From positions 396,182 through 460,181 of the forward strand of contig QPGO01000036.1 of the NCBI GenBank assembly GCA_008632985.1: a stretch of DNA of 64,000 nucleotides. The letters are read 5' to 3'. The DNA is from Psammoneis japonica. Taxonomy: Eukaryota. The notes below the pieces were generated by a model. That model was not told where the DNA came from and ran no database searches. It worked only from the letters and a program-made list of their open reading frames with translations. The position numbers and the translations under genes were made by a program. Shown in pieces: positions 1 through 60,130 of the stretch. Within the stretch, counting starts at the first letter, position 1. Each line of letters opens with the position of its first letter.

Positions 1-156
1 GCATGCATTTGATTGAAGCTTGTGCAAGAAAAGTTAGTGAGACATCAGACAAAATGCAAAAAACAGCTTCATTTTGTCAAGCACTTTTGCTGGCATTTTT
101 CAAGTTCTGCTTGTTGACAATTTTGACAATGCACACTCAAAATTTTACAAAGGAAA

Positions 157-1090
157 GTGGAAACCACTGTGTTGCCGCCTCTGATGTGCCGCAAAGAAGG
201 AAAAGACAACGTCAATGAGAACCTGCCTGATGGACATCGGCTGTCCAAAGACACCTTTGACGGTCTGCCAAAGTTCTTGCCTGGACCAGATCAAGCAGAA
301 TGCCTCAGGATTGCCAAGAAAGCCGTTCACCGAGTTGTGCGAGAAGAAGAAAAGGGCACAAAGATTGACACAGTTACAGTTTGTAGACATGGTCCAAAAT
401 GAGGCTTCATGGGAAAACAAAAGTTCAACGTTGACGGGGAAATGTTTGTGGGTTGCTCTGGATTCATTCAACACGTTCAAGCCACAGCCTTGAATGAAGA
501 AATCAGAAGTGAGAAAATCACTTTGCAGACAAGTGACCAAGACTGCATGAGAGCCAAGGACTGTTTTGACCATTTCAGCAAAATGAGTGAGACAGAGCGG
601 GGGGCTGGTTGTGACTGGGGACAGACACGTGACATCAGGATGGCAGTTCCAGGCAATGTTCTTGTGTGCAGGGTCAAAGGAAGTGCCGCTGGTGGAGCAG
701 AGTGTGCAAAGGTCAAGGATGACATGTTGGAAGAGGGACTTGAGGAATTGCTCACAAGAGTCAAAACTTCAGAGCTGCATGACGAAGACAATGCCAACGA
801 CAGCGAGGACGATGGGGGCGAATGCGCAGTCCACAGCAAAACAAGCTGTTGCCAAAAAGCCGAAAGTTTTGACAAGGACATTTTGAAAGAAACTTGAGAA
901 GCTCAAAATCCTCAAAATTGACAACCTCCAGCAGCTGAGAGTGAAAATGAAAGATGGAAAGCTCAGCAAGGAATTGAAAGACGTCTTGCTGTTGGAAGAG
1001 GACAGCAGAATCAAGGAGACCCTCAATTCAAACCAATCCAGCCCAACACTGGCCATGTTGTTTTTGTTGCCAGGCTTGCAGAATCCATGA
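157..1090 (+). pseudogene. Decayed protein-coding relic of unknown family, probably repeat-borne
   Basis: Collinear charged, protein-like ORF pieces (157-402, 409-897, and the continuation KLEKLKILKIDNLQQL...) are separated by TGA stops or frameshifts. No motif recognised. Confidence 0.3.
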
Positions 1091-4000
1091 AAGGCCAACA
1101 ATGGTGTGTTCCTGTGTGCCAGTCTGCAGGTCATGGCCACAAGATTGAGGACCCCAAAAGCAGGAAAGTGCTTGGGCATCACAAAGGAGTTGAGCACCAC
1201 ACAAAGTCATTTTGGAAGCAGAATGATGGAACTTGGGTCAAGAAGGGCGGCGGGGACACTCGAGGACATTCTGAAATCACAGCAGGTTGCCTGATGTCCT
1301 GAGCCGGTTGCAGTGGCCAGCTTCTACACAGGAACATGTGGGCGCAGCACAGCAGATGTGAATGAAGGGAAAGACAATGCCACATGGTGAACATGGTCAT
1401 GTTGCAGCAGTTTGCTGCTCTGCATGGCCAGCTCAGGGCCAGAGTGCAAGTCATTGGGGGCTTCTGTTCAGCCAAGCTCTCCTTGTGGCGACCACAAAGC
1501 ATTCGGCAGCTTGCATTGAATGATCACTCAAGTTGTGGAAATGCCTTTACCCCTCACCCACAATCAAACAAAGATTCAAGACTCACCACTGTCAGGGTCA
1601 GGTGCAAGCCCCTCTGCTGATGCAGGATGAAAACCACAGTCATTGTCTTCTGTGCAGTGCTGCTCGATGAGGACATGGTGGTTAAAGTTTGAGCCATTCT
1701 ACACTGCCGCTCGTCTTCAACAGTGAAGCTTCATCCACTCTTGGTCAGGGCCATCTGAACAACATGTTCACCCATGTGGTGCAAGGCCCACACACACACT
1801 CCTGGGCTGTGATTCTGATGTTTGACTCCAATGAAAAACAAGCCAATGTTGCATGGGCTGCAAAGACAGTGTTGACAACATCTTTCACCTCTTTTTCTTT
1901 TTGAGAAGTCAACCAGTTGTTGCCACACACATTGCTCTCATTCAGCAGTCAGAGTGAGGTCAAATCCAAGCTTCTTTGGGGTTTTAGCAATGACGATTGG
2001 TGTGCTGTTCTTCACCAACCACTCCTTGGCATTCAACATCCTGACATCTTTTTCAACTGTGGGGGACTTTTTTCCTCCAGCAACCCACACAACACCTTGG
2101 ACAGACATGGCCCAACAAGAGAAAGAGAAGAGCATGCCACCAAGCAAAGCTGTGTGATCAAAAAGGCACACAGGTGCAACTTTGTGCTGGCGCTGCATCA
2201 CAAAATGGCAGTTGAGAAGAACTCCACAATGAGTGGGGAGGTGGCTGTTCTGTCATGCCAACAAAAACTGCCAAATCCAACAAAACATGCCCCAGGAGCA
2301 ACCTGCTGTGCCACTCTTCCTTGTTTTCCAACACAGACAGTTGGTCCATTCCTGGGCCCATCCCCACAACACCGCTGCAAACAGGGTGAGAGAATGTTGT
2401 TGTCCAGTGCTGCATGCACAAAAACTTGTTGCTGGGCTCCTCACCCTCTCATGGCCACAAAAAAGCAAAGTTTTTGGCTTGCATCAAACAGCTTCACCTT
2501 TGGGTTTTTCCTGTTCTCCAAAAGAAAATGTTGGTGAAGACATTGTCATCATTTGGCACACACTCTTTTCTAAAAACTTGCCTTCTCCAAAGCTTTGTCT
2601 TTTGCAAGTTGTCTTTTTCTTTCAAGTCACCCTTTTTCAAATCACTTTTCCAATGTGTTGCTTTTTCTTCTTCTGAGCCAGCTTCATCTTTGAGTCATCT
2701 TTTTCCCAAAAGACAATCTCTTTCTGAGTCATTTCTTTTTTGGCAGCAGTCTCCAACTGTGGTCATTTTCTCATCAAGCACTGCAAAGGGAAGTTTGGTT
2801 GCAGGTGCAGCCCCCTGCTCTTTTGCAAGGAGCTGAGCTGAGCTTTGCCACATGTGGCTCACCAAACTGCCAGGTGCTTGAAGGCTCAGGTGAGGAAGGG
2901 GGCCGCTTTTCAATCTGCCTGACCAGCACTGCTGTTTCTTCTTTTGCCTTTGGTTTTGATTGTCAGGGTGATCCACAAAGTTGTGGCTTTCTTCTTTTCA
3001 CTTCCTCCTGCCTCTTTTAGGAGGTGCCAGTGATGAAGGGGGGGGGTGATGCAGATGATTGGAGCTTGAAGTTTGACAAGCGCACTGGTCATGAGTGAGT
3101 GGCACTTGGTCGTCACAGGTGCAACAAGAGAGACTCAGTGTTTGGCCAGTCTTGTCGGTCAAAACAAACCAGCTCCAAGTTTTCTTTGGATGAACAATGG
3201 GCTCCAACTTCTGGCTTCTCATTGACAAATGAGCCAAGCAGTGACACAAAGCTGGGCCAGGTTAAATTGAACAAAGAAGCTGACAACAGATGACACAACA
3301 TTCTCATGAGTGCCATCTTGCCAGCACTTGTGCTGCTGGGGGCTGGAGGGTTGGTTCTCACCCCACCCAGAGCCACGATTGCATTTGATGCCCAAGAGAC
3401 CCCCTGGACCCTGCAGCACAATGCAGCTTCAAATGCCAAACCATGGCTGGAGCTGCGCACTGCCCCCAAAGACAGGCCAAGAAAAACAGTGCACGGAGAA
3501 GAGGGAAAAATTGACATTTCTTGGCCAACCCTGATGTGTGTCATCCCATTGAAGCCTTTGCTTCTTGGCCTCAGATGCAGCAATTGGCTGTCACAAAGGG
3601 GCACAAGATGCTGCAAATGAGGGCCAAGTGCAGCTTTGGTCAGTGCTGACTGTCTGGACCCCAGAAGCCCCAGATGACACCCCTTGCAAGTCTGTTGTTC
3701 TGCATGTGCTGCAAAAGATCAGCTGAGTTGGCAGTGTGTCTTTTTTGCACTGTGCAACACTGAGCAACCCAGGAGCAGAGCCAGTGCTGTGCAAGAAGGC
3801 CAGGTCAACCTCCTTTTTGAGCTTTGTCAAAAAGATGTGAAATGAGCCAGAACACCTCTGCAAATGAGAGAATGAGTTCATGGACAAGCAGATCTGCTGT
3901 GTGTTGCAGTCTCGTGTTTTTGGAGAAAATCATGATTGAGCAACAGGGTGCCCCATCACAGGCCAAGCAAAGTTGTGGGTGTTTGTTGTTGAAAGGGGAG

Positions 4001-4609
4001 GCATGCCTTTCTTTGGAGTCCAAGCAAGGACATGGGTGGCCAAAACACATGCTGCTTTCTCAGAGCCAAGGTGGGGTGGGTGCCTTGAAGAACACTCCAT
4101 GCGCAGCAGCCATGTTCAAAAAATGTGTTGCAAACAGCCATTTTGAAAGACCAGGAGCATGCTGTTGACACTGAACAAGGTTTTGATGTCACAGGCTGGC
4201 ATGAGCTGGTACATCCACAAACAATGTGACAGAGTTCCCTGGCAGCAAGCTGCAAGAGCGAACTCACCCTTTTGGTCCCTGACTTGACTCTGGTGTCATG
4301 GCTTTGAGGGCCAAATGATGCCACCGGCAAAACCCACATTTTCTTGTTTGGTTTGCATTTGGAGAGTTGGCTTGTGTGGAGATGTTCTGTCTCTCCACCA
4401 GCTTGTCACTGTGCTGGTTGCCAAATCAACATCTTGCCATCAACAACAAAAATGTTGCTTGTTGCTGCAACTTGGTGGTGCCTTCATTGTCGCTTTTGTG
4501 TCTTTTTTTGTTGGTGCTGATGCTGTGCATGAGACTTCTCCATCTCTGAGTTCTGCTCTCTGCAGGGCAGGGGGTTTGCAGGCCTCTCGGCACTGTGCAG
4601 TGTAGATTC

Positions 4610-7400
4610 TACTGCCAGCAGAGAGATTCAATGAGATGATGGACTCTGCTGCACTTCCGCTCCGCACGCAACTCCTCCTCCTCCTCCACTCTGCCCGCCC
4701 TCCCTGCTCCTCCTCCATCCTCCCTCCTCGCACAAAAATTGTGGCATTGTCCATGTGCCATTTGCGGTTCTTCTTGGCATTCAGGATGCACAGCTCAAAT
4801 GTTTCATTGCCCTTTTGATTGCGGAGAGGGTGGTTCACAAAGGTGCTCCAGCTGAACACTCACCCCTGGTGGGCATTCGAGTCTGGCTTTGCAAGAATTC
4901 TGGCATCAACCAAAGCAATTTTGGGGAATCTACATGAGTTCTGAACCCACCATTCACCCACTTTGAAAAGTTTTGTGAGCTGCAATGCATGCAGTTGAGG
5001 AGCTTGACCTTGTCTCACTTTTAAACTGTGCACGTCAACACCCTGAGCTTTGAGAACTGCCAGCCAATTCTCTTTGATCTGCCAGAACTGGCTGACTTCT
5101 TCCTTGGCAAGTTTCTTGGGGCTGTCCTGTGCATCATTGTCTGCGGAATCAGCTGGCTCCAACTCAGCCATGAGAGAAGTGAGAAACACCAGCTCATCAT
5201 CATCATTGTCATCCTCTCACACAACAGGAGGATCACCAGCACTGTTGGATGAAGATTCAGGTGCAGGGTTGGGGTCGGAGTTGTCTTCATCGCCGCAGAT
5301 GCTGTTGGGGGGAGGGTGCATGGCTTTCACCTTGTTTTGCAACAGCTCCCCAGCCCGGCCCATCAAGGTGCATGCCTTGTCTGAGTCAATCATTTCCATG
5401 CACTTCAATCCACATGCATGTCGCCACAACAGGGTGACACGCGACAGCCAGCAACTGATCGTCCGTTGGCTCGGCAAGGTGTGGATCCATTTCTGAGAGA
5501 ATCCTCTGGTGCAGTTTCCGTCCAAAAGCAGAGAGAGGGTGGCACACCTTGGGAAGATCACTGCAGGAGGTGTTGGCGCTTGGCCAGAACTTGTCACCTC
5601 CCACTGAGGTCAACAATCTTCAGCTTGGATGCATCGGCAATGCGAGCCCATGCAGTCATGCAGTCCATGAGCGACACTGCAATGGCGGCACGTTTGTCAG
5701 CTTGAACTGACATGGAGCAATCATGAAGAGGGTGCAACAAAGCAGCTTTCTCTGCAGTGCAGAGCCAGTCCTCCTCCTTCTCAAGAACCTTGCTGTTTGC
5801 AGCAGATCTGTCACCCATCAACAAAGTGTGACATTTGATCCCGTGATGCAACACAAGCAGCTGCTGACAGAGCAGTGACACACCTGCCACTCAAGTGTCG
5901 CCAGGCAAAGACACAGCTGTGGGATCCTTGCAGCCGCTGCAGCCATGCTCAACTGTGACATTCACAAACTTGCAGTGGCGCGCTTTGTTCCTCTTGCCAA
6001 CATCCAATCAACTGGCTTCTTGGCTGAATTTAGAATCCGCATCGACTCATCAAATGAATCAACCACTGCACGGTTCTGTGTCCGCTTGGCAATGCCAGCA
6101 GAGTGCTTGATGACAAGTTCAATGACATGCATCTGCAACAAATGGGACAGCAGCAAACAAGTTAGAGTTGGAACACTGTTGAAACAATTAACAGTGCACT
6201 GGAAGTGTGGGTTAGCCAGCGCCGGCTTAGCTGGCAAAGGAGTGATGGCACTTTAAATGTGGATCTGGTTTTTTGATGGGCTGCATGCCTGGCATGTGCC
6301 TTCAATGTCTTCATCATCTGAGGCAGCAACAATGAGACTGCCAAGAGAAACGGCAGAGTTTGTTGTGTCATTGACCAAACAGCACAAGTCGTCCTCTGCA
6401 ATTCCCAAACAACTGCCTGGCTCCCTTTTGACAATGTCAGACAGAGACGCTGCTTTATGAGCAGAGACATCCTTGAGCAGAACGCAGACACGATGATGGG
6501 CAAAATTCTTGGGGTCAACAAAGGCAATGGAAAGTCCAAGCTTGGCTTCACCATCCTTTTCCCAACAGTCATGCATGACCAAGATAAATGATTTGGGTGC
6601 CCCCGTGGCGTGAATGCAGTGAGTGCGGATTTGGTCAAGCATGGCATGAGTTGCCTCCACAGCAGCTGCAAAATGACAAAGCATGACATTGTTGCACCGC
6701 ACTTGGCCAATTTGATGATCCTTGGTGTCTTTTAAATCCTTGGCATGATCAATGGCATGTGTCATGAGGTTGCAAAACTGCTTGCTTTGTGCTGCCCATG
6801 CAGAGATGTTGTTGTCATGAACACAACAACATGGTTCTCGCACTCATGAATGACCCGTGCCTTCTTTGGGTGATGACCCACGAAGCCTTGCATTGATGGC
6901 TGTCAAGGCTGACCTTTGCGTTTTGTCATCAGAGCAGAAGCAGCAGAAGACAATCCTGTGAACCCGCTCAGTGGAGAAGCTGCTGCCAACGTTGACCCAG
7001 ATCCAGATGACACATCTGCCATTGTCAACATGGATGACAAAAGCTTCTGTGTCTTTTTCTGTTTTCTTTCTTCAAGCAGGATGCTGATTTCAGGATGCTG
7101 CTTGTGATTGTTTGTCAAGTGCACCCATGTGCATTTGCAGTGGCCAGGTTTTTGAGACCAACAAGTGCCTGTGCCAAAGGGATGCGTGGGTTCTCAAAGC
7201 ACGATGGTGCACAAATGCATGTGTTCTTGCTTGTGTCTTGCATCCTGGAATGACCCCGTGTCTTCTTTTGCCCTTCCTGGTCCTCATCAATGAGCTTGCA
7301 ATGGCGAAAGCATTTCCACACATCAGATGTTGACTTCTTTCCCTGTGGGGGACCAAGATCCATCACCAACAACTTTTCCTGATTCACGCGTTGCAGATGA
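4610..7400 (-). mobile_element. hAT-superfamily DNA transposon, degenerate transposase
   Basis: Motifs in order on the minus strand: BED-finger-like STSDVWKCF...CICAPSC...HLTNNHKQH (~7350-7090); first catalytic region ILVMHDCW; VNDTTNSA (cf. VTDNASN); QMHVIELVIKHSAG (CxxH region); TRVAG; and a dimerisation-domain-like WWVQN..RFPKIALVDARILAKPDSNAHQ...VFS (~4960-4800). Several frameshifts and stops. Confidence 0.8.
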
Positions 7401-7707
7401 GCATCATCCTGTGCGCGAAACTGCTCTGACAGTTGTTGCATTTGTGCTTGGCACTCCCTGCTTTGCTCATCTTGCTGTTGCTGAGTGGAGGAGGGTTCTG
7501 GGTTGTCTGCACCATTTGGATCCCCATGATTCGAACGGGTTGTCATTGGTGCTGACATCACAAGCGTTGTCACATCGGCTTTGTCATCGTTGCGGTGGCA
7601 TCAATGGACATCGGCAATTGATTGGCATGGTCCGCAGGCACCAGCGCCGGTTCTGCATGAGACACAATGCACAGGCTCAGATGCAAGCTCTAAGAACTTG
7701 CACTTGT

Positions 7708-7865
7708 GAGTCAAAGCAGTCATGGGAGTCATTGCACAAGTCAACCAATGAGTCATTTCACAGGGCAACTCAAGTCACAGTCAAAGTCATTTCAAAGAAA
7801 CGGGTGTTGACCATGGTCACAGTTGCAGTCATCATCTTGTCAGACAGTCATCAGTCAAGTCACAG
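7708..7865. repeat. Cluster of AGTCA/GTCA motifs, likely hAT subterminal repeats
   Basis: More than ten (A)GTCA copies in ~160 bp just upstream of the minus-strand transposase. hAT ends typically carry short repeated transposase-binding motifs. Confidence 0.45.
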
Positions 7866-7899
7866 TGCAGTGGGTGCAATTCTGAACAGACTGACACAC

Positions 7900-10800
7900 C
7901 CCACCACTGAATCACAATTCTGTGCACACTCTCATTGAACCTGCCCACATGTTTTCAATGCCAGGTCCTCCGCAGAACAGCCAACCACCATGGTGTCTTC
8001 TTCCACCACTGATGGCAGCCACACCCCTGCTCTTCCCAATGATTCCACCATGGCAGATGAAGCTGCTGTGTGGACAACTCATCCCTTGAGCCTGCCAACA
8101 AGCTGACCAAGTGTCAGGTTGAAGAGATTGCCATCCGATTCAAAATTTGTGGCCCTGAGGCATCGTGTGAGCCCACAACCCTGATCACCACTCATCTGCA
8201 AGTCTCACAACAGATTCTCTTCACTTGCCACAAGGATGTCAAAATCCCAGACAACCACAACAACGAGATCACAAATGTCAATGTGGCAGATTGGGTTTCG
8301 TCTTTGCAGCATGAACGTCACTTTGGGATGTCCACCACACGCAGTGGCGACAAACACCCCGTTGCTCATCACTCATGCCATTGCATCCTCACCAAAGTTC
8401 CTCTTCGCGACATCCGATCTCATCATCACATCCAAAGCATTTTGGATTTGAACAACATGGGCATGAAACGCCATTTCTGGAATGAATCTGACACTGATGC
8501 TGCCAACTGCATTGCCACGGCAATGAAACATGCTCCAATTGACGAGGCTGCCAAAATGTTTCTCAGTGATCTCTTGGAGAGTTTAGGACCAAGATGTCTC
8601 AGTTTTGGCTGGTGCCCACCTCTGTCCATGCAGACAACAACGGCATTGCCACTCCCTTGTGCACAACAACCTTTGCAATTGAAGTGAAACAGGATGAGTG
8701 CCATGCTGCAAGAAAAGTCTTGTCACATGCTTCAAATGAGCTTCCGACCCACATTGTCATGGCAAAAACGTGACACCTGTCACCGTTGGCATTTTACAAT
8801 GCAATCAAGACCCAAGCTTGTCACAATGACAACACATGCGTGATTCCTCTGTTGTGCACGTCACCCGACATGATGTTTTATTTTGGCGACAATCCAAAGG
8901 CTTTAAAAGGAGTCCAAGCCATTTTTCCCACCACTTTGGTTAAAGGACGGCACAATGTCTTGGTCAATTGTGCTGACTTCAAATCCGCGAGAGCTGCAAT
9001 CTCCACGTGCATTTTGAATTTGATCCCGAGCCTCCTCAAAGAATCCTGTCCTTCCCCTCCCTTTCTGGATCATCCCCAGGTTTCTGGTGCATTTGACGAG
9101 CAATCAGACATGAGCAAATCTGTTGTGTTGGCCAGCATTCGGAGTCTTGAATCTTTAACTTCTTGGACGTCTCCCCCCCCTGACAGATGCTCAAGCTTCC
9201 AATGCAAACTGCCCTCTGCCTGCTGCTCATCCTGGCAGAGGTCATGCAGGACAAGGTCCTGTTCCCGGTTGCGGTGCTTCCCAGAGTTCTCCAGTTCCTC
9301 CACAGATTTTCACCCAACTCACTTCTTGCACGCCTTCAACCTTTGGTTGTTCTGGACATCCAGGTCTTAATTCTCCCCAATGTTCCTGTGCTCAAGCTGC
9401 TCAGTCTGCCACCAGTTCCTCCCTCACGTTGACACAAATGGCTGAAGTGCAACAAACTTTGTCCAAGATGCAAGAGAAAACTGACAAGGCTCCGGGAGAT
9501 CTTCGTCAACAGAACTCCCAGGACATGGAAGCTTTGAACTCTACATTCGCCAAACAACACACCAATGACATCACTGCATTGCAGTCACAGCATTCTCAGC
9601 AACTGGCAGGAATGCAGGCGCAGATGAATCAGATTGTTCAACTGTTGCAAGCCAATCAGAGACTGCTCAAAGCTCCACCAGAAAACAACCAAATGACATG
9701 GAAATGCCAGATTGGTCCAGCAATGGTCACAACAAGGAGAAGGATTTTTAGAATGGGGTTGGACTTTGCCGCCTCCACCNNCCCCCCCCCCCCCACAGAC
9801 AATCAGGCACCCTCCAGACATCCCCCCAAGAGATGCGACTCTCACTCTTGCCCACATTTTCTGTTGCACATCTCGACACCGCTGATTCGCTCCCCTCTCA
9901 GCATCCAATGGCACACATTGCTCCAAGCCCCAGTCTTCTCCTTGGAGGAGCATGGCCCAACCATGAGCAGCAAAGTTTACAGTGCATCTTCTGTCCAAGT
10001 TTGGCAGTCCATTCTAGACGGCAGAAGCAATCACCTCCCTGCCAATCGCCGCATTGATTTTTCCCGCCTGCATTCAAACAAGTCAATTTGGCATGACATC
10101 AAGCCAAAGCTTTCCCATCACACCAGATTGCACACCTTCAATGCCAACAGTTGCAAATTTGATAAAAGGGGTGGAGACATGTTGAGCTGCTGCCAGATTG
10201 CCAATGAGATTCAGGCTGATGTCATCGGCATCTCTCAGAAGTTTGTCTGGATGCTGTGCAGTGCGACGTTCTCTCACCTTCTTGATCGGCTGTTCAAAAT
10301 GTGATGAGCCATGGTTGCAGCACATTTTCCTGCAGCTCTGCTGCTTTTGCCACTCGAAGCAAACTTGGAGGCACTGCCACCATTTTGGAAATTCCATCTC
10401 CGCTGGATGTTGCAGTGTCAAGAATCTGATCCGTTGGGTTGCTGGTCCATCCAAGTGTTCAATGGCCAAAACGGATTGCAGGTCATGTTCATGTCGTGCT
10501 GTTGGGTTTGTTTGAAGAATCAAAAGGCACCTGGTTGCACTGCTGCACATGCACAACAAGCACCACTGCTGCGCCAACAAGGTTGTCAAAACACTGATCC
10601 CCAGAAAGCCTTTTGCTCGGATCCATCTTGGCTCCAGGAATTTCTCACAGACAGCAATCACGAGGTCATTTTATTCGGAGACTTCAACACGGACTTCACG
10701 GCTGACACTGAGTCCCTTGCTTTGCTTGCACAGCGATTTAATGTGTCCAATGTTCTGTTCAACTTGATGGGTGACACGGAATTTTCTACCTGCGCTCAAG

Positions 10801-18400: not shown

Positions 18401-18619
18401 TCCATCATGAGTCTGTGCCTTGACCAATGAACGCACACTTTGAACACCTGCTCACCTCATGGACTCTCAGAGAACACAGACAGATGGTGTGTTTCTGGTG
18501 CCCTCTGGCACCATGGTTGTTTTGTGCAGAAGTCTGTGCAGCAGAAATGTTTTTTTGCACATGCAGAAACATGCTAGAATCTGCAAGAGCACCACCAGAG
18601 CACATCACTCACACCATGC

Positions 18620-24500: not shown

Positions 24501-24540
24501 AGACATCCTGTCACTTGACGGCCCTGATCATGGGGGAGTG

Positions 24541-43265: not shown

Positions 43266-43560
43266 AAATCCTGTTTCTCATCCGCAACGATGTGCAATAG
43301 AGTCCCACGTGCCCTTTTGGCTGTCACTGTCATTTCGGCATCTCCACACATCATTGCCTTCAGAAACCATGCAGAGTCGATGCTGATGACCAACATGCAA
43401 ATGCCTTTGCCCATTTTCATCATGTGCGGAAGGGGCTCGGGCACCAAACCTTCCCTGGTGCCTCACCTTTTTCTTTGGGCACGCCATTCTCATGCTGTTT
43501 TTGTGATGATGGAGACCCATCAGCACACACCACCCAGTGCATTCAGTCGCAGGGCCCCGC

Positions 43561-43614
43561 AAGGAACCCGGGTCAATCTTTTTTTTTTTGAAAAAAGATT
43601 GACCCGGGTTCCTT
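43561..43614. repeat. Perfect 24-bp inverted repeat with 6-nt spacer
   Basis: aaggaacccgggtcaatctttttt (43561-43584) and aaaaaagattgacccgggttcctt (43591-43614). Confidence 0.9.
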
Positions 43615-43699
43615 TTCCTGGTCCAATGACATCATGACACAGGAGAGGGACGGATGGCATGGTTTCCCACTCCCAGCATGTGTGTGGCTGCCATTGATC

Positions 43700-49736: not shown

Positions 49737-51697
49737 ATGATGTTGCCTCGTGGTTCTTCCCCATCGCCTTCCCAGGACGCCGATCCTGCTGACGGCAGTA
49801 TGAAATGGTCGTCTACGTTACGCATGACGGTTGGTTGCTTGGGAAGATCCACTCCAACCCTAACGTGGAGTCTTTTGGCCTTGCACGGTGGCGATACCGT
49901 CGTGTCGGGTGATTCCTTGGGTCATGTTCAGTTTTGGAATGGCAAGACAGGAACGCTCATTTCGAGTTGTAATCAGAATGATTCTCATGCAGACGTATTG
50001 TGCTTGGCGACCACTCGAGACGAGTCGCGTGTGTTTGCGAGTGGGGTGGATTCAAGAGTGGTGTGTATCGAGAAACAACTACACAAGAATAATTGGATCT
50101 TGACTCATGCGCAACGACCGCATACACATGATGTCAAGGCTATGGCTGTAGCTCATGATGGCGGTGGCGATTCTCAGGAGTACTTGTGCAGCGGTGGTAT
50201 CGATGCCAAGTTGTGTGTCTACAACACCAAGCGAAAAGAGTTTGCCAAGGATCGCCCGAAAATCATATATCCGTGGCCAAGCGTGTCGCCCATTACGGTG
50301 GCGCCGCACGGCCGAATCTTGGCCTTGATAAGACCTGCTTCCATTGACTTTTTCAAATTGTCACAGCCTGTGCACGATTCTTCTTCATCCCTGGTAGCTG
50401 ATCAAGATGCAGGGGAAGTCTTGTCCACGTTAAACATCAAGAGTTCAACAAATCTCATTTGTGCTGCCATGGATTCGGGCGCGACTTTTTTGGCTGTCTC
50501 GGATGCGCTGGATGGACTACTCATATTTCAGTTGGACATCAACCTACATGACAAAGCAGTGAATTCAATTCCAGTGCCGCTGCCTTCGTCCATGAGATTC
50601 CCTTGTGTTTCTGTCACTTTCTGTGGACCGAGTCGATTAGCTTGCGCTACAATCCATGGTAAGATTGTTATTGTGGAACTCGGAAAAGACGACAGCGACA
50701 AGGTCGTGGTTGAGAACCACCATATTGTCTCTACCGACGACGTGGTAGATCAGAGAATGGGCTTGTTCTCAATCCATAAACTCAGTGCCTCGCATGATGG
50801 ACAATGGCTTGTTGCATGCCAAAATGGTTTGAATCAACATGGACAGATTCAAGTCTTTTCGAAAAATGACGATGGCTCCTATCAGCATTTCTGGACTGTA
50901 CCGAAACTCGATGTCCCATTTACAACCGCAGACTTTTTGCTTGGAGAGAAGGCACAGTTGATTGTTTCGTGTATCAACTACGGATTTTATATCTTTGACT
51001 TGAAGGAAAAGTCTCTTTCAAAATGGAGTGAGAAGGCTGGCTTTCCAATTACGCCGGTTTTGCCTCAGGAACTAGCGAGTCGTAATGATTACCCGGTTCG
51101 ATTTGCCTTCAACAAGGCAACTCCCAACAAACTTTTAATGGTACCTTATTGATTCACCTTGCCATGACAAAGCAAGAACGTTATTGCGTCATGCCGGTAA
51201 AGAAACTTTCTTCGTGGCGTGCACGCTTGTCACCCTTGCAAGATTGACCTGCCCTTATTTTTTTCGCCCATTTGTGCAACACGAAAGAACGCACCCGTGG
51301 TATAGTAGGGGGCTACAATCCATAACGACCATGTATATCTCGTGAAACGGATATCACTTACACGGTTTCGCTCTTTGTGTCCTTTATTTTGCAGGGATCG
51401 TTTGGCGCCCTTTGTTCTGTTGACTTGGACAAGGCGATACCAAAGCACTGTCGCATTTTCCCAGAAAGGCACGTGCGAGGGGTCAAACGTCGTAAACCAA
51501 ACGAACGAAATGACGATTCCCAAGACGAAACAGTTTCTGACCAAGAGACGAACAACTTGACCTTTTGCTTACGTTACAATAGCGTTCTTCACATGAACTT
51601 TCTCGAAGCAAATGAGTTGCTCGTTGTGGAACAACCGTGGCTAAGCGTCGTGGCGAGCTTTCCCGACGCCATGGAAAGAAAAGTTTACGGAAGTTGA
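49737..51697 (+). CDS. UTP4: U3 snoRNP protein UTP4 (cirhin)-like WD40 protein, lacking the N-terminal part; exons ~49737-51140, 51395-51697
   Basis: VVSGDSLGHVQFW, HADVLCL, VFASGVD, HTHDVKAM, SGGIDAKL, and C-terminal ELLVVEQPW..V...FP....RKVYGS. GT-AG intron is in frame. Recognisable similarity starts mid-protein at the repeat-domain edge. Confidence 0.8.
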
Positions 51698-53171
51698 CTT
51701 CGTCATGGTGAGTTCTTTCGACGATTACAACATTGGAATGATGCGCAAAAACGCAGCGGTGCCCAGACGATACCATACTCCCACGTTTTACGGTACCTCC
51801 AAATTACAATCGATCCTTGCAACATCAAAAGCGCCCCTTCAGTTTGAGCTGCTTGTGTGCCATCATCGGCACGAGCGGTATAGATGCAGGGGACACTGCA
51901 AGCCACAAAATGAAAAGCACAAACGGTCAAAGTTTCTCACCTACTCGTTTTTGCTATCTCGCACTTGTCTAGCTATCACAGTTGCTTGGTTGATGCCGAT
52001 TAACGTGCTGGGCGCTAAAAGGTGAGAAGTAGATAGTGCCGGATCCTGCTTTGGTGACCGCAAGACGCAGCGGTATCAATCATCGATTACTCTACGCTTT
52101 GATACCTCCTATTCACATATTCCTTGCAACAATGAGCATTCGCCGATTATCTGAACTGGTTTCGTACATTTTGGTGACTTGACATTTTGCTTGATGGCAT
52201 GTTGTCTCTAGGTGGCGTAGGTGTTGCCAGTTAAGTCCAGAGGTCGGGGCAAATCGAATGCGTCTCTCCGGCCTTGAGTCCATGTCACTCTCGTGTCTTT
52301 GAGCGTAGGAAGTTGCCTGTTCGCTTGACCCGTCAGGTCACGGCTGTTGAAATAGACAGCAGCGTTCGTCTGTGAAGCAGCAAAAGCTCGCCAAGCAGAT
52401 CATGCCGTTGACGGAACGCGGGTTTGGGGTTCCGTCGTATCAGTGACATGATACGGTAAGTCTTCACTCGTAGGGAGTGTTGATTTAGAACGCGGTCGAC
52501 TCGCAAGTTTTCTTGTTGTCTCCGTAGTACGTCCCCCCTTTTACTTTTTTTTTTAAGTGATGTTTCACTCTGAAGATACGTAAAAGCTTGAGAGCCATCT
52601 TTTGACGGCGCTCTTGAGGCAACGTTACCCTACGCAACCGATTTCAATAGCTACTTTTTATGTTGGTGTGTTTCATATTTTTGAAACACGCTTTGAACCT
52701 TTACAATAGAAGTAGAAAGACTAAAAGTACGACATAGTAATCCTTATTTGCGTGTAAGCTATTCCGTACGTACGTCAATGGACTGCGATGACGGTCGTAT
52801 AGCGCTTGCGTTGATGTTGTTGCGCGTACTTTGATGTTGTCGTGTCTATTTTTTACCACGCTGCTCTCTTTTTTCAGATGGGATCCGTAATGGGGTATTC
52901 GTTACGGTATGCTCCATAAGATGATGTGTGCTACCTATAGACTATTTCGGCGCTGATATCGCCTGCTGTTTTTTGTGGATTCGTCGTGTTCACTTGTTGT
53001 TAGGGAGTTGCAAGTGTTCTGCCGAACTGGCGGAACAACAGAATAATTATAATTCTGAAGTAGCTAGCTAGAATACTCTCCGTCCAGAGATGAATGAAAA
53101 AGATTCGAAATTCGTAAGTTTATTGATGTGACGGTACTAAGGTCCGTATATCCTCCACTGGCTATTATAAT

Positions 53172-53555
53172 AATGTTTGAATACCTTTTTCACCTGAACA
53201 ACAAGTCCCCAATCAACATTCTCGAGCTTGTCTTTGAAGTTGGCCTTGAGCGCGTTGACCGATGCACGCGTCAGGGTCGAGTCGACGCCGTGAGACGAAT
53301 CGAATGGACGACAGTATTGACTATTGGGAAGTCTTCATTGACAATCATGATGGCCACGGGCGAACCCTTGCGAGCGGTCTCTTGCTCCTTGCTGTAGCTC
53401 TCAACGAGGTCATTTTCCAAACGCGTAGTCCTCCCAAGGCTGGGAGACACAACGTTAGCGCCGACTTTGAGAATACCTTCCGTAACTTTAAGACCAACAA
53501 TGATTGGATCCTTTTTGTTTAAAATGTGTAGAGGCAAAACTTTGATACACGCAGC
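53172..53555 (-). pseudogene. eIF5B: eIF5B C-terminal (domain IV) fragment, frameshifted
   Basis: CIKVLPLHILNKKDPIIVGLKVTEGILKVG...EQETARKGSPVAI..., then in another frame LTRASVNALKANFKDKLENVDWGLVVQVKKVF. No upstream GTPase domains. Confidence 0.8.
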
Positions 53556-53589
53556 CCTGGTGATGCGTTCGATTACGTCGCACTGTCAG

Positions 53590-55890
53590 CCTTCCGGAGC
53601 GGTAGTGGCCGCTGCACTCTATCTGTTTTCAGTCAAAACCACCCCAGATGTGACAGGGGCGGTAACAATAGCTGTGGTAGCAACCACAGACGCCACGATG
53701 GCACCTATTCCAACCCCTAAGCCAGTGGCCGTCGCCCCTCCGGCTGCAGCCGCAGCTGTTGCAGCTTCTGCAGTGGCTGTGTTTGCTGCAGCCTCAACCG
53801 CCATTTGCTGAGCGACTGCTTGTACGCTAAGGTAAGGTATTGAGAATAGTGAATCCACGATAAATCAGTGGGAAAACTCTTTAATTCAATCATACCAAGT
53901 CAAATACATTGTATGAGAAAACTTACGCTGGCGGTACAGTACCAGTTCCTCCTTCTCCCTGTCTTTGAGGTGCATCGGTGCTGAAGGGGTCTGTTTGACC
54001 CAAGCTTTCCATCTGACCTGCACCAGCGTCGTCGTCATCATCCGTCTTGACGATAGACTATTTCAACTTTGATGCTGCCAAGGCAACGGCTTCCAACCCA
54101 GCTACACCGGCACTCTTTTACATATCGCCGCCCTCTTCTTCTTCATCGTCTGTGTCATTCTCCTTCTCGTTCGTCTCGTCGCTCTCGACATTGGAATCAG
54201 GTGCACTTTCGTCTCTCCGTGGCATTTAGAATGGACTTGAGCTCGGCAGCTGTGAATGGTTTATTGACTCTTGCCGTAGATGGCCCAACCCCCAGTCTTG
54301 TAGAAATCGCCGAGCATGCAGTAACGGGTGTCTTCTCATTGACATAATTTTTCGCTGTGTCAGGAACATGAGAATAAAGTGGGCCTGGAGCTTTTCCCAC
54401 TCCTCCTGCTTGTCGTTCAATTATGGTAGCAGTGCACGACGACTCAGTCATCTGCCCGAAGAACACCTCAGTTTACTTTGAGTATGAAATCTGTCTCTGG
54501 GATTGTAGCGCTCCCGGACTGGTGGCGCGAGACGGCTCAGACATTGGCCAGCATGTTTGCGATTTGATTCGGGGCCGCACTCTCCAAAAAGTTCCGTTTT
54601 CGTGGGTACAGCAAAGAGCGGCGAATGCCACACCGGAAGAGCCATGCTCAGCAATCGCTGTAGCGTTAACTCAACTGAAACAGGTTGTTGCTTCATTCCT
54701 TGCCGTATTTTAGTAATTCTTCGTGGCCTTCAGAATGGACATGAGCTCAGCAGCTGTGAACGGTTTATTGACTCTTGCCGTTGATGGCCCGACCCCCAGT
54801 CTTGCTGTTTCGGAGCAATGAAAAGGTGGTCCATTTGCCAGGAGTTTCTGTTTTGGCGGAATACTATTTTCCGCCCTTCTCACTGAGCGATGAATAAGTT
54901 CCCAATCATTGTCAGATGGTCCACTTAGCTCATCGGAATCGTGTCCAGCACAAGTAGCGTCATCTGTATGACTGCTTTGGTCTTTGTGCGAATCCAGGTC
55001 GTCCTTGCTGCCGGCATGAGCCCAGAGTACAAGGCTTGTTTCGAAACTTGTAACCTCCGTTCCATCATTCATCATATATGCCGGAGGGCTTGGCACAAAA
55101 GTAGGATGATACCACACACCCGTCACTAGCGGTATAGCAACGGAGGCAATGTCGGTTGTACCTTGACGCTGGTTTTCGTACCTGGCAAAGTATCTCAACA
55201 CTTCGCTCGTCTCCGCAGAAGTGAGATCAACAAGACCGGTGTCTGGTGCTATGCCCAAAAATCGAGGCTCGTTATTCAAAATGGACAAAACCTTTCAAAA
55301 TTTGGTAAGTGAGAGGTTGGAGGGAAAATAAAGCATCTTTGTATAAAGATCCGTGATCATATTTGCTGAAGCTTCTTTTCGTGTACGTACCTGGCGGGTG
55401 TCAACGGCATAAAACCAATATATGTTGGCATGTTCGTGGCATCCCGAAGGAAGAACGACATGGTTAGTACTCGGCTTCTTTGGTTCCAGTACGTATTCTC
55501 TCCACCCTTCCTCTTTGATGTCAAGGTAGGCTTTGTACCTTGGAGAAGAATAGAGTGGAAGCAGGCGCCAGAGTTAGAGTGGGTAAGGCACGAAAAATGC
55601 TTCGTACCTGGACATGTTGAGGTGTGTGTATGATGTGCTTACCCTCGAACGAGTCCTTTTCCAATAAAGACAGCTCTAGACTCGTCTGATTCGCCCAACT
55701 GGAAATCAAGCCGATCTCGGAGAGGAAATCCGTCCTGCAATGTTCCTGACACCCCCAGAATCATGAACTGGGGTGGCTCAGTGTTGTAAGAGTCACTGTG
55801 AGCAGTTGCTGCTGCCGATTTCAGCCACGAAATGGAAACGACGAGCCTTCCAATGTATCCAGCAACAGATCGCATGCCGGTGAAAGGCAT
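53590..55890 (-). CDS. Probable multi-exon gene or gene relic of unknown function
   Basis: Several minus-strand ORF blocks with normal composition (55639-55890, 54710-55288, 54197-54466, 53619-53820) and nearby GT donors. Includes an Ala/Val/Thr hydrophobic segment. Exon structure not resolved. Confidence 0.3.
54215..54805. repeat. ~85-bp direct duplication (54215-54300 and 54720-54805)
   Basis: Both copies encode RLGVGPSTARVNKPFTAAEL.SIL.AT on the minus strand. Confidence 0.85.
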
Positions 55891-55935
55891 GATAAGAAAG
55901 AAGAAATTGTGAAGAAGGCTCGAGAATATTTTAAT

Positions 55936-55973
55936 GCGGTGAGCGGTGAGCGGTGAGCGGTGAGCGGTGAGCG
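55936..55973 (+). repeat. (GCGGTGA)5 heptamer microsatellite
   Basis: Five perfect GCGGTGA units plus GCG, read directly. Confidence 0.9.
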
Positions 55974-56099
55974 CCATGTTTTTTTGCGGAGGTTCTACCG
56001 GTACCGGTAGATAGAGAGTAGGTTATTGTGGGTTTTGCGAATGGATTTTGCGGTGGATCTTATTCCGTCCGGATGACGTAACTCCGGGTACAGTGCTCA

Positions 56100-59000
56100 A
56101 CGTCGTTCTTTTGCTCACATGCCCACAATGTCGACCTCTTATGTTGGGATTGGGAGCGGTCGCAGCAGACAGCGCCGGCAGAGAGCATAGCCTCCACTCT
56201 GCAGCCACCATGCACAATGTAGGTCATCTCTCTAGACAGTGCAGTCCAACAATGAAGCAGGAGCCAACTGATGTCAAGCTGGCGGGCGGAGTGTGAAGAG
56301 CACAGAATGGGAAGTGAGTGGATCTGCCACCCAAAACCCTCCTTTTCAACATTTGCTCATGAGTGCAAGTGTGCTCGGTGTCCAAACAATGCTCATGAAC
56401 ACAATTGCACCCAATTTGCCAACAGTTGGGGCTGTGCCAATGTGAGCGAGCGGATGATGGGTCACACCACGGACACAAAAAAGCGCGCTCTTCCAACGCA
56501 GGATTGTGGTTGGTCAAAGCATCTGATCAGTTGTGGGGCCAGATTTGCAAAATCATGTCTCTCTTGGGAAAACGCAGTGCACTCTGATGTGCATCAGAGT
56601 TGGCAGTTGTGTTTTGGAGTTGGCCAGCCCTGCTCATTTCCTCTTCTCACTCATCTCGTCAACCTGGCTTTTCTTTCACACCTTGCGTCAATGACACTCT
56701 CACTCTCCCTTTGTTCTTGTTTTCACTGCCATCTTCAGCGCCATTTCCCTCCAGATCTGTGTCATCACATTCCTTGGTTGTGCATCCCTGTCCAGGTCTG
56801 CTGCCTGCCACAAGTGTTGCTGCCCTCCTCGCGCCACTGTCTTCTCTCCCACAGGGGGCTGTGGTGTTTGCAAAATGACTGTGTTGAAGCAGCTGTGCTT
56901 CAGTGCCTTGGGTCTGGATTTGCAAAACCACAGATCTCCCTTGGAAAGATGCAGCATGCTCTGATGGGTGCCAGAGTTGACAGCAGTCTTGGAGTGTGAG
57001 CTCAGACCCTGCTCATTTCCTCTTCTGGCTCACCTTGCCAACCCCATTGTTTTTCCCACCATGAAGGATTCTTGCTCTTGTTGCTCTTCTTTTCACTCTT
57101 GCTGATGACTGCAGGTTCATCAGCTCTGCCATCTTTTAAGCTCTTCCCCCCTGGATCTGTTTCGTCATCTTCCTTGTTTGCAGTCCCTGACCACCCACCC
57201 ACCACTGCTCCCCAGGCATGCACACTCTCCACATGCTCCAACGTTGTGGCAGGCACGGGGTGGTTCTTCACAAAAACAGCATCAACACTGCTGCAAAGAC
57301 AAGCCTTGCATCACCAACCACATGTTGGAGAGATGTGTTCCAGCTCTAGGTGGGACCTTGCACTGGTGCCAGACTGTGACGTCAATGTTGACTTTTGCAG
57401 CATTTTGTGTCATTTGCAGTCCAACATTTTTTGTGTCATTTGCAGTCCAACCACTGTCAGGCCATCCATTTGACAAGAACTTTCAATGTTTTTTCACACA
57501 GTGCAATTCTCCAATTTCTTGGAAAATGTTCAGGGTGGGAGCAGCTTCGATCAATGACTTCAAGCTTCAAGAGGCACAAATTGCACCACAATCTTGGTCA
57601 TTTGCTCACATGTCAAAGACAAATGTTCTTTCATTTTGCCCAACACATGAGCTGCAGAGCTTGCAGACAAAATTTGGTGGACCCACATGTCACACAGAGT
57701 CTCACCTGGGGTGGCAGTGCATCAAAAGTTGTGCTGGAACTTAAGCTCTCAAAAGGTGACATGCCCCCAGGATGTGCCTGAAGAATGTTCTGGAGAGAAG
57801 GCACCAAGAGGAGGGCAACATGGAGTTGACTTCACACGTGGCAATTGGCCTTGTGATGATGCTTTGCTCAAGAAGGCTTGCTGAGTGGAAGATTTTCATT
57901 TGAAAGATCAACAACTGGGAGCTTGTCTTTTCATTGCTTGCCAACAAAATTTGAGCAGAACAGGTCATCAGTTGTGGAAAATTGCTGCTTGCTTGGCATT
58001 TCCAACATGGTGCTTGTTGCTGCTGAACGTTTTGCAGTCTCACCCTTCATTGCAAAAAGAACAGCAAGGTGGGGCTCTGGCAAGAGTGGTGTGTGTGCAG
58101 CCACACATCATTTCTTGCAGCGTTCACCAAGAAGAGCCAGGGAATCTTGGCACTGGCAATGGATTGTTCCATGGCAACTGGGGTTCTTGACATGTTGTTG
58201 CCATTGCACTCTGTTGTTTGATCCAGCAGGTCAATGGCCTGCTCCAGGTCTGGCTCAATGCTTTCAAAGTGTTGCAGATTGGGTTGACAAACTTGCCCTT
58301 GTCTCGTCATTTGCCTGATCTCCAACCCATGCCATTCTTGCCACAGAGGCAAGAAGTTGCCTTCAACCCATGGATGGCCTTTTTCTTTTCAAAGCCAAAA
58401 ACACATGTCACTTCAGCGAAAGAAAAGTTCAATGAAAAGTGCTTGTGACTGCCAGGCAAGGGGCACTCTTGTGTGTGTGCCTTTGTGGTGGTGGTTCAAG
58501 GTGCACCTTTTCTTTTTTCACCAGCAGGCTTTTGAGGTTTGCCCATCCACTGATGGGCAATCTCTGTGGCAAACTTGGCAAACCACCAGCAGTGGCTGTT
58601 GCAACAGCCACAACAGACAAGACTGCACTGCAACAAGCAGAGCCAAAAATCTGTGTTGTCCTTTCCATCTCACCTTTGTGCTGCTGACCAGCACTGCAAA
58701 AAAGAAGTCAATGTCTTTGGAAAGCTCACACAAGCATGTGAGCCACACTGTTCTCCAAGGGACTGTGCAGCTGCCATCTTGAATGCATTGTCAGTGTTGA
58801 AAATTTCTCCCTGGACTTTGATCTTGATGTGTGGAGCTGCTTGAGACAATTGTCAGAAAGACAAGCACACAATGCATGCCACAACTTTCACTCTCTGGCT
58901 TGTGCAGAAACTGTTGAACAACAAGAACGTTGTGAACAGCACGTGCCTTCACTCAATTCTGACAATCAACTCAAACAACACACAGCAGCAAAATGAAAAA

Positions 59001-60130
59001 GTTGGTTGTGTTTCTCTTTTGACCATGGCACTCATTGCAGTGGCCGTGGGTGCTGACACCACTCCAGCTCTGGTTGCTTGCTGCTGACTTTTGTTGCAGT
59101 GCAAGGTGTGTGTGAGTGTGTTCTTGTTGTGATCATGCATGATGTTGTTCCTTTCTCTTTTGCAGTTCATCCAGCACTCACCTTGCTCTTGCCTTCCTGT
59201 GCACAGAGACAGAGTTGTCATTTTGCTGTGGTCATGCTGGGCACAAAGCAGACACTTGTGACACAGAACTTTGAAATGCTGGTTTCTGGGTTGCAGGGTG
59301 GTCTGAGATTTTCAAGATGAGAGGATGTGTGCCAAAGACTGTGTTTTCGAATTAAAGACACCAACAAGGGCACTTTAAAAAGCAGAGCAGCAGTGTGAGG
59401 CTGCCCATTGGGGCTGAGCAGATGTGACACTCTCCTGTCTCCCAACAAACTTGCTGATGTTGGAACAAGAGGTGGCCTCTTGACAATTGCTCCAACCAAG
59501 GCAGTGGCAAAATTCCACACTTTTGAGCTTGTTGCAGCTTTTGCTGCCATGATGAAGCAGCATGAGTGTGGAAGCAGGGTTGCTCACACTTGGACAGATG
59601 TTGCACTCAGTCTTGCAACACCCAAGACAACATCTTGTAAATTGTCCAGACCTGAAGCCATGATGTGAACTCTCGCTTGAGCTCAAAGATGCAGGGTGTT
59701 GGATTGTGGGGTCACCCATTGGGTGGGGCAAGGGCAGGCATGAAGGCTTCAGCCTCTCTTGTCAGCTGCTCTTCATGGGGCCACAAAGCAGTGGCACAAA
59801 AACTTGTGCGCATGTCCACTGCAGTTGGGAGAAGAACGGATTTTGCCAATGTTAGATGGGGAAACCCAGTTGGGCATTGCGGGTGGACCAGGCAATTGGC
59901 CTTTGCTGACAGTCACAAAGCAGCAGTGCAATTCGCTAACACATTCACCAAGGTGGGGGGCATTGCATCAGTTGTGGGGTTGTCCAGTCAGGCCACCTGT
60001 GTGGCAGTCTCAAACCAGCGCAGAAAAACTCACCCCATCAGTTCCACCAATGAGTCCTTACAAAGAGGTGTTTGTTGCGACCGTCCAGTGACCATGTCAG
60101 ACCATTTGCATGAAGGCTGGTGCTTGAAAT
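56100..60130. other. TpA- and CpG-depleted hypermutated repeat domain 4, element family unresolved
   Basis: Both TA and CG are nearly absent and TG/CA is in extreme excess. No confidently recognisable protein motif remains. Confidence 0.85.

Follow-up and report, generated by a model that had tools for sequence, protein, structure and literature searches.

TpA-specific, sharply local mutation of integrated mobile and relic DNA in a 64-kb window of Psammoneis japonica

Four blocks within a single 64-kb stretch of Psammoneis japonica DNA (contig QPGO01000036.1; "the window" hereafter denotes this whole stretch of 64,000 nucleotides) have lost almost all of their TpA dinucleotides and gained TpG and CpA in their place. 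The process behind this loss is DNA-level, TpA-specific and sharply local, and we hold with high confidence that it changed silenced DNA of mobile or foreign origin in situ, after integration and site by site. A process of this kind has already been described in a 2026 bioRxiv preprint on the rhizarian Bigelowiella natans; what is new here is its occurrence in a diatom-like stramenopile and on ordinary transposons.

We profiled composition in sliding 1-kb windows and placed block edges by likelihood changepoints, which fell at positions 13073, 16201, 26574, 40778, 49799, 56234 and 60145. The observed/expected ratio (o/e) of TA was 0.00-0.13 across most 1-kb windows of the blocks, compared with 0.39-0.92 in the flanks. 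The blocks delimited in this way, numbered B1 to B4, and their flanks are as follows.

~1-13072: block B1, TA o/e 0.05, CG o/e 0.31, CA/TG 1.71; reaches the start of the window
16201-26573: block B2, TA o/e 0.12, CG o/e 0.59
40778-49798: block B3, TA o/e 0.07, CG o/e 0.55
56234-60144: block B4, TA o/e 0.05, CG o/e 0.18; the most decayed block
Flanks: TA o/e 0.57-0.73, CG o/e 0.95-1.03

An earlier note on this DNA, made from its letters alone, had claimed four sharply bounded, TA-poor blocks next to normal host DNA. The changepoints lie within ~130 bp of the coordinates it gave, and the flank values agree with its view of the neighboring genes. Across the 36,226 block positions we counted 174 TA, compared with 1,495 expected at the flank rate, and both CA and TG were enriched (o/e 1.58-1.92 in blocks, 1.07-1.23 in flanks). 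Expressed per kb, the blocks have lost 36.5 TA and 31.5 CG (together 67.9) and gained 31.4 TG and 33.4 CA (together 64.8), so that the gain of TG and CA matches the loss of TA and CG and the books balance. The trinucleotides TAA and TAG occur at 0.85-3.5 per kb in blocks versus 6.1-12.5 per kb in flanks, and TGA is increased in blocks. The near disappearance of TAA and TAG leaves many long open reading frames (ORFs) in the blocks, and Tyr makes up only 0-0.9% of residues in all 21 block ORFs of at least 200 aa.

Judged by the nearest TA positions, block edges are sharp to ~100-200 bp. An imperfect, partly palindromic low-complexity tract of CTCTA/TAGAG (40550-40777), which contains ~40 TA, stops 1 bp short of B3 and shows how abruptly the erased domain begins. 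Between B1 and B2 lies a spared 3.1-kb island of TA-normal host DNA (13073-16200; TA o/e 0.57, CG o/e 0.97), and the sparing extends to its non-coding part.

The tyrosine scar and the timing of the changes

Block B2 contains a nested Gypsy/Ty3 long terminal repeat (LTR) retrotransposon with the following parts.

20709-24972, + strand: Gypsy/Ty3 LTR retrotransposon, internally shortened; TA o/e 0.23, CG o/e 0.88
20708-21140 and 24540-24972: LTRs of 433 bp, 92.1% identity, TG..CA ends
20705-20708 and 24973-24976: target-site duplication GCGG, 4 bp
22279-24585, + strand: pol ORF, 768 aa, with the reverse transcriptase (RT) C-terminus, RNase H and integrase in order

In Pfam, the pol product matched RT_RNaseH_2 (E=4e-27), Integrase_H2C2 and rve; the protease and the N-terminal part of RT are missing or out of frame, which marks this as a shortened copy. 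We aligned the ORF with its best 120 relatives (48-59% identity) and defined as Tyr columns those with Tyr in at least 70% of the relatives. Eleven of the 26 Tyr columns read Cys (TGY) in the window copy, seven read His (CAY) and two have kept Tyr, the other six falling in the misaligned first 70 residues. In the in-frame part, 18 of 19 Tyr columns held Cys or His; by comparison, 290 of the 362 remaining conserved columns were unchanged (Fisher p=2e-11). The altered motifs LEHLGC, VNCCR and EECGP, which the earlier note had singled out in this element, were all located in the same ORF. None of the 120 relatives carried the scar, the highest count being 3 Cys/His in 25 columns. The median Tyr content of the relatives was 3.9%, compared with ~0.3% in the window copy.

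Changes outside the Tyr codons followed the same rule. First-position A>G changes were preceded by T in 14 of 21 cases, compared with 7 of 72 unchanged A-starting codons (p=8e-6), and 12 of 13 second-position T>C changes lay in an NCA codon. Replacement of Ile by Thr always used ACA, and the codons were ATG for Ile>Met, GCA for Val>Ala, TCA for Leu>Ser and CCA for Leu>Pro. No stop codons are made by these changes; instead, Tyr, ATA-Ile, GTA-Val and TTA/CTA-Leu codons are erased, and the elements die by missense. This mode of inactivation had been proposed before, and both the Tyr scar in pol and the near absence of TAA and TAG bear it out.

Three further features of the blocks, all outside retroelements, extend the survey of the scar.

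42279-43277, - strand: tyrosine-recombinase-like ORF in B3, 333 aa, Crypton-type likeness
25297-26355, - strand: ADP-ribosyltransferase (ART)-like ORF in B2, 353 aa, R-S-E type, PF01129 E=7.9e-10
18868-19209, + strand: cysteine-synthase (cysK)-like pseudogene fragment in B2, PALP E=1.2e-6; solved (PDB) cysteine synthases E=1.2e-14

The recombinase-like ORF has no Tyr in 333 aa, compared with 1.1-4.4% in its relatives, and shows His (CAC) or Cys (TGT) at four of six consensus-Tyr columns. One relative from a public protein library (P0287) contains 1.1% Tyr and 7.7% Cys+His and, judged by its composition, may itself be partly erased, as a further such copy in a different genome. The ART-like ORF likewise has a Tyr fraction of 0; set against solved ARTs, its G-Y reads G-C and its Y-R-G reads H-R-G, and two other motif tyrosines read Phe. 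The hAT, cysK-like and exonuclease-like fragments of the blocks are weak matches with too few Tyr columns for scoring. The broader claim that Tyr had given way to Cys or His in every element thus holds for the Gypsy, recombinase-like and ART-like ORFs, but two of the named identities found no support: the supposed LINE motif PICGTGQG (12480-12503) lies in a region (12117-12962) that gave neither a Pfam match nor a usable atlas match, and no DDE domain was found in the block ORFs by Pfam or atlas.

The two LTRs of the Gypsy element date these changes. They differ at 34 of 433 positions, and the differences include 9 adjacent doubles with CA in one copy and TG in the other, 11 cases of CG versus TG/CA, 3 of TA versus TG/CA and 2 others. 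CpG decay alone predicts 0.76 CA-versus-TG doubles where nine were seen (Poisson p=1e-7), and this excess means that nearly all doubles are former TA sites that became CA in one LTR and TG in the other. Because the LTRs were identical at insertion and now carry different products at the same sites, the changes postdate integration. From the pair we infer a TA content of ~5% at insertion and a per-copy loss of ~0.92 of susceptible TA and 0.22 of CG, which corresponds to a TA decay ~10.6x faster than CpG decay. The TA rate per base came to ~418x background, to be read as an order of magnitude, as only 2 background differences enter it. Two TA sites, CTAA and CTAG, were retained in both LTRs. These data show a process that works on DNA already integrated, treats every site and every copy independently, and hits both strands.

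The LTR pair also bears on whether the scar could have been written in RNA, by ADAR-like A-to-I editing of element transcripts that was then fixed through reverse transcription and reintegration. ADARs favor a U on the 5' side and hyperedit double-stranded RNA that derives from repeats, a point to which the discussion of the B. natans preprint also refers. Editing before integration, however, does not yield two LTRs of one copy with different products at the same sites, and it does not account for the opposite-strand product, His, at 7 of the 18 altered columns. Moreover, DNA outside retroelements is erased to the same degree (the recombinase-like and ART-like ORFs, the cysK-like fragment, non-coding DNA), which shows that the changes are not RNA-mediated, and we regard an ADAR-type origin as highly implausible.

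We then looked for this scar in related Gypsy loci of metagenomic origin. The 80 loci had a median TA o/e of 0.78, and two of them were erased: L072 (TA 0.02, CG 0.24) and L078 (TA 0.29, CG 0.63), whose conserved Tyr columns read Cys or His in 6 of 6 and 4 of 6 cases, respectively. Both share only ~70% DNA identity with the window element in conserved pol segments and thus represent a separate instance of the process. For the L072 family, a TA-normal copy was available (L066; TA 0.93, CG 1.12; 77% identity over 866 bp), which provided a polarized comparison. All 54 TA sites of L066 have been lost in L072, giving 25 CA, 21 TG and 8 other dinucleotides, and 70 of 83 CG sites now read CA or TG. 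The two strands are therefore hit in similar measure, as in the Gypsy pol ORF (11 Cys versus 7 His). Per strand, A>G changes amounted to 46/108 at TpA, 7/79 at ApA, 15/108 at CpA and 4/100 at GpA, that is, a rate of 0.43 at TpA and 0.04-0.14 elsewhere, as the earlier note had anticipated for a TpA-specific process. Its proposed direction, A to G in TpA on both strands, is borne out by the Gypsy codons, the LTR pair and the L066/L072 pair alike.

An alternative is that the elements were already TA-poor on arrival, because they were foreign or because TA was selected against, and that nothing happened in place. Dinucleotide signatures do vary between genomes, and TA is mildly low even in the flanks (0.57-0.73). 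Yet conserved tyrosines of the catalytic folds have been replaced, which indicates dead rather than adapted proteins; the related metagenomic loci are TA-normal at the median; the LTR pair implies that the LTR was ~5% TA at insertion; and one family has both a TA-normal copy (L066) and an erased one (L072). We give this alternative next to no weight.

Equally remote, in our judgment, is an artefact of sequencing, base-calling or polishing at modified bases in heterochromatin. Some long-read base-callers make systematic A>G miscalls at methylated motifs, and the read data come from one sample and one study (runs X1-X3, compared as Logan k-mer contigs); X1 possibly derives from the assembly's own sample. 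Nevertheless, X1 contigs at a depth of ~35 cover 55944-57365 and 57336-60400 with no differing letter and no gap, and thus without a single TA in place of TG or CA across 55944-60400, the disagreement that the earlier note had named as the mark of an artefact. This exact match over B4 excludes an assembler or polishing artefact, but does not add a second individual. The scar also recurs in L072 and L078, contigs of another project, both products occur at homologous sites of the two LTRs, and parallel, ordinary CpG decay marks the blocks as old, diverged sequence. Coverage by X2 was nearly nil over B3 and part of B4 and provides no evidence either way.

Site preference and candidate chemistry

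To characterize the target, we determined the frequency of each NTAN context in blocks relative to flanks after strand symmetrization. The block/flank ratios were as follows.

ATAT: 0
ATAC/GTAT: 0.005
GTAC: 0.017
ATAG/CTAT: 0.03
CTAG: 0.054
CTAC/GTAG: 0.067
ATAA/TTAT: 0.09
GTAA/TTAC: 0.10
CTAA/TTAG: 0.31
TTAA: 0.72

Erasure of RTAY (R, purine; Y, pyrimidine) is more than 98% complete in blocks and TTAA is largely spared. The young Gypsy element shows the same order, with RTAY at or below 0.07, CTAA at 0.81 and TTAA undepleted. RTAY sites are thus shown to be lost first, and TTAA ~ten-fold more slowly or slower still. In our reading, this order would fit an additive per-strand model in which the target is the A in TAB (B, any base but A) or, equally, the T in VTA (V, any base but T). 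Since TA is palindromic, the damaged base, A or T, cannot be named from these data. The rates by 3' neighbor in the L066/L072 pair were uninformative because the pair is saturated.

The context data, together with the relative rates, bear directly on the passive explanation that the earlier note had listed among its candidates, in which TA loss is a by-product of error-prone repair of heterochromatic or 5-methylcytosine (5mC)-bearing DNA by a Pol-eta-like polymerase with a WA>WG signature (W, A or T), set off by T:G mismatches. The blocks are CpG-depleted too, so that T:G mismatches from 5mC decay must have been frequent there. However, WA includes ApA, and ApA is not depleted: AA o/e is 1.15-1.28 in blocks versus 1.13-1.18 in flanks, and A>G at ApA in the polarized pair reached only 7/79, compared with 46/108 at TpA. 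TA loss also ran ~10-fold ahead of CpG loss in the LTR pair, so that the supposed trigger is rarer than its outcome, and the more than 98% completeness of RTAY erasure is a further point against it. We consider this explanation improbable.

Overall, we think it likely, with less assurance than for in-place conversion as such, that the blocks record hypermutation at TpA that is targeted to silenced DNA and driven by an enzyme. The process makes A:T>G:C changes at TpA on either strand and stops within ~100-200 bp of neighboring genes; it runs ~10x faster per site than CpG (5mC-type) decay and a few hundred times faster than background. Its enzyme would most likely be guided to its targets by silent, methylated chromatin and not by sequence repeats. 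The earlier note had called the process repeat-targeted, and this part of its account is not supported, as B4 now lies at single-copy k-mer depth and the target in B. natans, according to the preprint's main text, is single copy. For comparison, B3 had a summed Logan contig depth of 260-700, a measure (over contigs placed at >=80% likeness) that is not equal to copy number.

As for the chemistry, the leading candidate is deamination: a TadA/ADAT2-like protein, or another with a deaminase fold, might turn adenine in DNA into hypoxanthine. We put this step forward tentatively, at a lower confidence than the targeted system itself. The natural tRNA context of TadA/ADAT2-type enzymes is U33-A34. 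We know of no natural enzyme that performs A>G changes on chromosomal double-stranded DNA at the scale of a domain. Two stramenopile-specific deaminase families, deaminase-SAM-Tudor and LmjF36.5940-like, are listed by Iyer et al. 2011 (PMC3239186), and either could supply the candidate enzyme.

The same targeted system might instead attack the thymine of TpA, for example through oxidation by a TET/JBP-type enzyme, with 5-hydroxymethyl- or 5-formyl-uracil mispairing with G to give T>C; a related possibility is a 6mA-type mark (methylated adenine) at TpA followed by a mutagenic downstream step. A TA>CA change is seen as TA>TG from the opposite strand, so that no result separates A-centred from T-centred damage, and the context order can just as well be taken to mean that VTA is preferred and TTA refractory. 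Mutagenesis by 5-formyluracil is towards A:T>G:C, and dinoflagellates carry 5-hydroxymethyluracil preferentially at TpA, a point for which our literature search gave no confirmation. To our knowledge, no modified base at TpA has been described in diatom heterochromatin. The authors of the B. natans preprint favor adenine deamination, although in its main text they argue only from the candidate gene. On balance, a thymine-centred system appears unlikely, if clearly less so than passive repair.

Several points weigh against the targeted, enzyme-driven reading. Our case comes from a single 64-kb window; the evidence in P. japonica is a historical scar rather than a set of de novo mutations; and a statistically useful polarized test was obtained from two elements only. 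X1 may stem from the same sample as the assembly and would then not represent an independent individual. Chromatin-state targeting is deduced solely from the coincidence with CpG depletion, and the self-complementarity of TA makes A-centred and T-centred damage indistinguishable. Small product counts by flank in the L066/L072 pair (GTAA, 4 CA and 0 TG; TTAC, 3 CA and 0 TG) are contradictory under any one-flank model. Among the related metagenomic loci, 78 of 80 were TA-normal, so that the process is not universal. Finally, a non-coding region at 51788-53115 stands out by a summed Logan contig depth of 3,170-3,700 with many short contigs and joints; its TA o/e is 0.5-1.25, its CG is normal and no RNA gene was found there. 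If this region (51.8-53.1 kb) is a genuinely high-copy element, it escapes the TpA process.

Contents of the blocks and their surroundings

The blocks overlap 180 ORFs of at least 90 aa, of which 163 were scanned against Pfam; the 17 others comprised two host ORFs at block edges and 15 overlapping the Gypsy element, whose pol ORF was scanned separately. Matches at E<=0.01 were obtained for 5 of the 163 (hAT, PALP, ART, exonuclease and one spurious adhesin). The features not yet described, and the subdivisions of B2 and B3, are given below.

4863-5216, - strand: hAT dimerisation match in B1, weak, Pfam E=5.6e-4
14272-16344, - strand: 690-aa ORF in the spared island, weak FAD-oxidoreductase matches (Pfam)
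16201-20708: B2a, old, TA-erased and strongly CpG-depleted; 1-kb windows with TA 0.02-0.12, CG 0.11-0.52
17414-18394: degenerate direct repeats of ~195 bp in B2a, 67-73% identity
24973-26573: B2b, TA-erased, TA o/e 0.07-0.22 (1-kb windows); holds the ART-like ORF
40778-49798: B3, a 9-kb multi-copy TA-erased element or elements
44735-45223, + strand: 3'-5' exonuclease match in B3, weak, Pfam E=6.8e-4

The cysK-like fragment sits in B2a, the oldest part of B2, which indicates that DNA not of transposon origin is erased too; the ORFs adjoining it (18424-18864 and 19299-19694) had no match among solved structures. The nearest solved relatives of the ART-like ORF, all weak, are bacterial ART toxins and effectors, and the ORF, which lies in erased DNA and has no Tyr, is probably dead cargo or a foreign gene. 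The recombinase-like ORF reached an atlas feature score of 0.96 to Phage_integrase/DUF3504 (Crypton-like) clusters, and an exhaustive HMMER search returned 87 relatives. PF00589 was detected in 4 of 10 relatives tested (E 6e-4 to 5e-3, below the gathering score), whereas the ORF itself has no Pfam match and stops before the expected catalytic Tyr of the R-H-R-Y set. No recognisable domains were found in B4 by Pfam, and the search for terminal repeats of B1, B2b, B3 and B4 gave none that were convincing. An NN gap in B1 (9780-9781) reflects a join between scaffolds or a junction left open in the assembly.

Host ORFs in the flanks match the TMEM65, TPX2, EDRF1, WD40 and INSIG families in Pfam. 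The EDRF1-like ORF has 168 relatives at E<=1e-10; among the best 120 of them, all 14 with a named source are diatoms (40-51% identity), and in a quick tree without outgroup the ORF branches between mediophyte centric and pennate diatoms. We take this to place the host among diatoms or in a close sister lineage, apart from Bigelowiella. Within 49795-55959, X2 contigs skip 51706-51972 (GT..AG) and 53826-53927, which suggests that X2 is a transcript library and that the host genes there contain short introns. A 235-bp repeat at 39593 and 61027 consists of normal, undepleted DNA; it is short, probably genic and uninformative. Rfam and tRNA scans of the window gave no match.

Relation to known systems and implications

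The earlier note knew of no description of such a system. One exists: in mutation-accumulation lines of B. natans, 231 of 302 nuclear mutations fell in two regions, an integrated nucleocytoplasmic large DNA virus (NCLDV) and a virophage region, and 230 of these 231 were A>G or T>C changes, each of them at TpA, the rate there being ~6e-7 versus a background of 3.5e-10 (~1000x; Mettrop et al., 10.64898/2026.01.13.699255). The preprint further reports 324 TpA-depleted coding sequences in which DDE and reverse-transcriptase domains are enriched, counts 124 clusters of windows poor in TpA and rich in CpA+TpG, and proposes an ADAT2 homologue as the candidate enzyme (10.64898/2026.01.13.699255). Applied to our window, its cluster definition is satisfied by 30 of 64 windows, in runs of 13, 4, 8 and 4, with the proviso that our computation of Rho(CpA+TpG) may differ slightly. 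Our literature search for the signature in diatoms or elsewhere found this preprint only, and in the available text of a Phaeodactylum tricornutum mutation-accumulation paper (PMC6604790) neither "transposable" nor "hotspot" occurs.

The likeness to B. natans, as far as the preprint's main text describes it, is close, and we infer that the same kind of process is at work. In both, the changes are exclusively A:T>G:C at TpA and give TpG and CpA in similar numbers; they are confined to discrete foreign or mobile regions with normal host DNA next to them, at a rate raised ~10^3 there and ~4x10^2 here by the LTR clock. The long-term scar is likewise shared, as clusters of 1-kb windows that are low in TpA, high in CpA+TpG and enriched in TE (transposable element)-type Pfam domains, and in both the responsible enzyme is only a candidate. 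The two cases differ in host (a diatom-like stramenopile here, a rhizarian there), in targets (transposons and relic DNA versus NCLDV and virophage) and in extent, erasure being near saturation here (TA o/e 0.05 versus 0.45 in the NCLDV region). De novo events were seen in B. natans, whereas the process is known here from its sequence scar alone. The main text of the preprint (10.64898/2026.01.13.699255) mentions neither flanking or trinucleotide context nor diatoms; the hierarchy of RTAY far above TTAA, the comparison with CpG decay and the LTR proof of post-insertion action go beyond it.

In Neurospora and other fungi, repeat-induced point mutation (RIP) has a similar outcome, namely local, dense, dinucleotide-specific transitions that cripple mobile DNA in sharp islands. 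Its direction is opposite, as RIP changes C to T at CpA and so makes TpA and stop codons, whereas here TpA is destroyed and TAA and TAG vanish. RIP itself is triggered by sequence duplication before meiosis and depends on RID/DIM-2. Deamination of 5mC at CpG acts in the same blocks, gives the same products, TG and CA, and accounts for about half of their gain (31.5 CG lost per kb), but it is unable to remove TA and is ~10x slower per site in the LTR pair. The earlier contention that the process is the opposite of RIP and distinct from 5mC decay was therefore sound, with 5mC decay running in parallel in the blocks. The APOBEC3/AID and ADAR systems of animals resemble it in deaminase-type mutagenesis of parasites that leaves strand- and context-specific scars in integrated copies. 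They differ in that they act on cDNA or RNA before integration, hit a single strand and work in other contexts (C>T for APOBEC, double-stranded RNA for ADAR), whereas the process described here acts after integration, on both strands and also on DNA outside retroelements. TadA/ADAT2 and the adenine base editors derived from TadA provide a likeness in A>G conversion via hypoxanthine with a T or U 5' of the target; early TadA-derived editors had a YAC preference.

These results have practical consequences for annotation. Erased elements are nearly invisible to profile searches, as the 5 matches among 163 block ORFs illustrate, and the loss of TAA and TAG creates many long false ORFs (180 of at least 90 aa in the blocks) that gene callers will turn into false proteins. 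Repeat and gene annotation will be distorted in genomes with such erased DNA. The site preference and the relative rates constrain any candidate enzyme, and a natural enzyme capable of A:T>G:C changes at chromosomal TpA would be biochemically novel and of relevance to base editing.

More broadly, the window extends mutational genome defence from one rhizarian preprint to a diatom-like stramenopile. It is quite conceivable, although we would stop short of calling it probable, that diatoms, chlorarachniophytes and perhaps much of SAR (stramenopiles, alveolates and rhizarians) share a chromatin-guided, TpA-specific DNA base-modifying enzyme, whether an adenine deaminase or a thymine modifier. Such an enzyme would provide a repeat-independent, RIP-like defence that erases RTAY in silenced transposons and integrated viruses at hundreds of times the background rate, and the finding points to the presence, in major marine phytoplankton, of a widespread counterpart of fungal RIP that has gone unrecognised.

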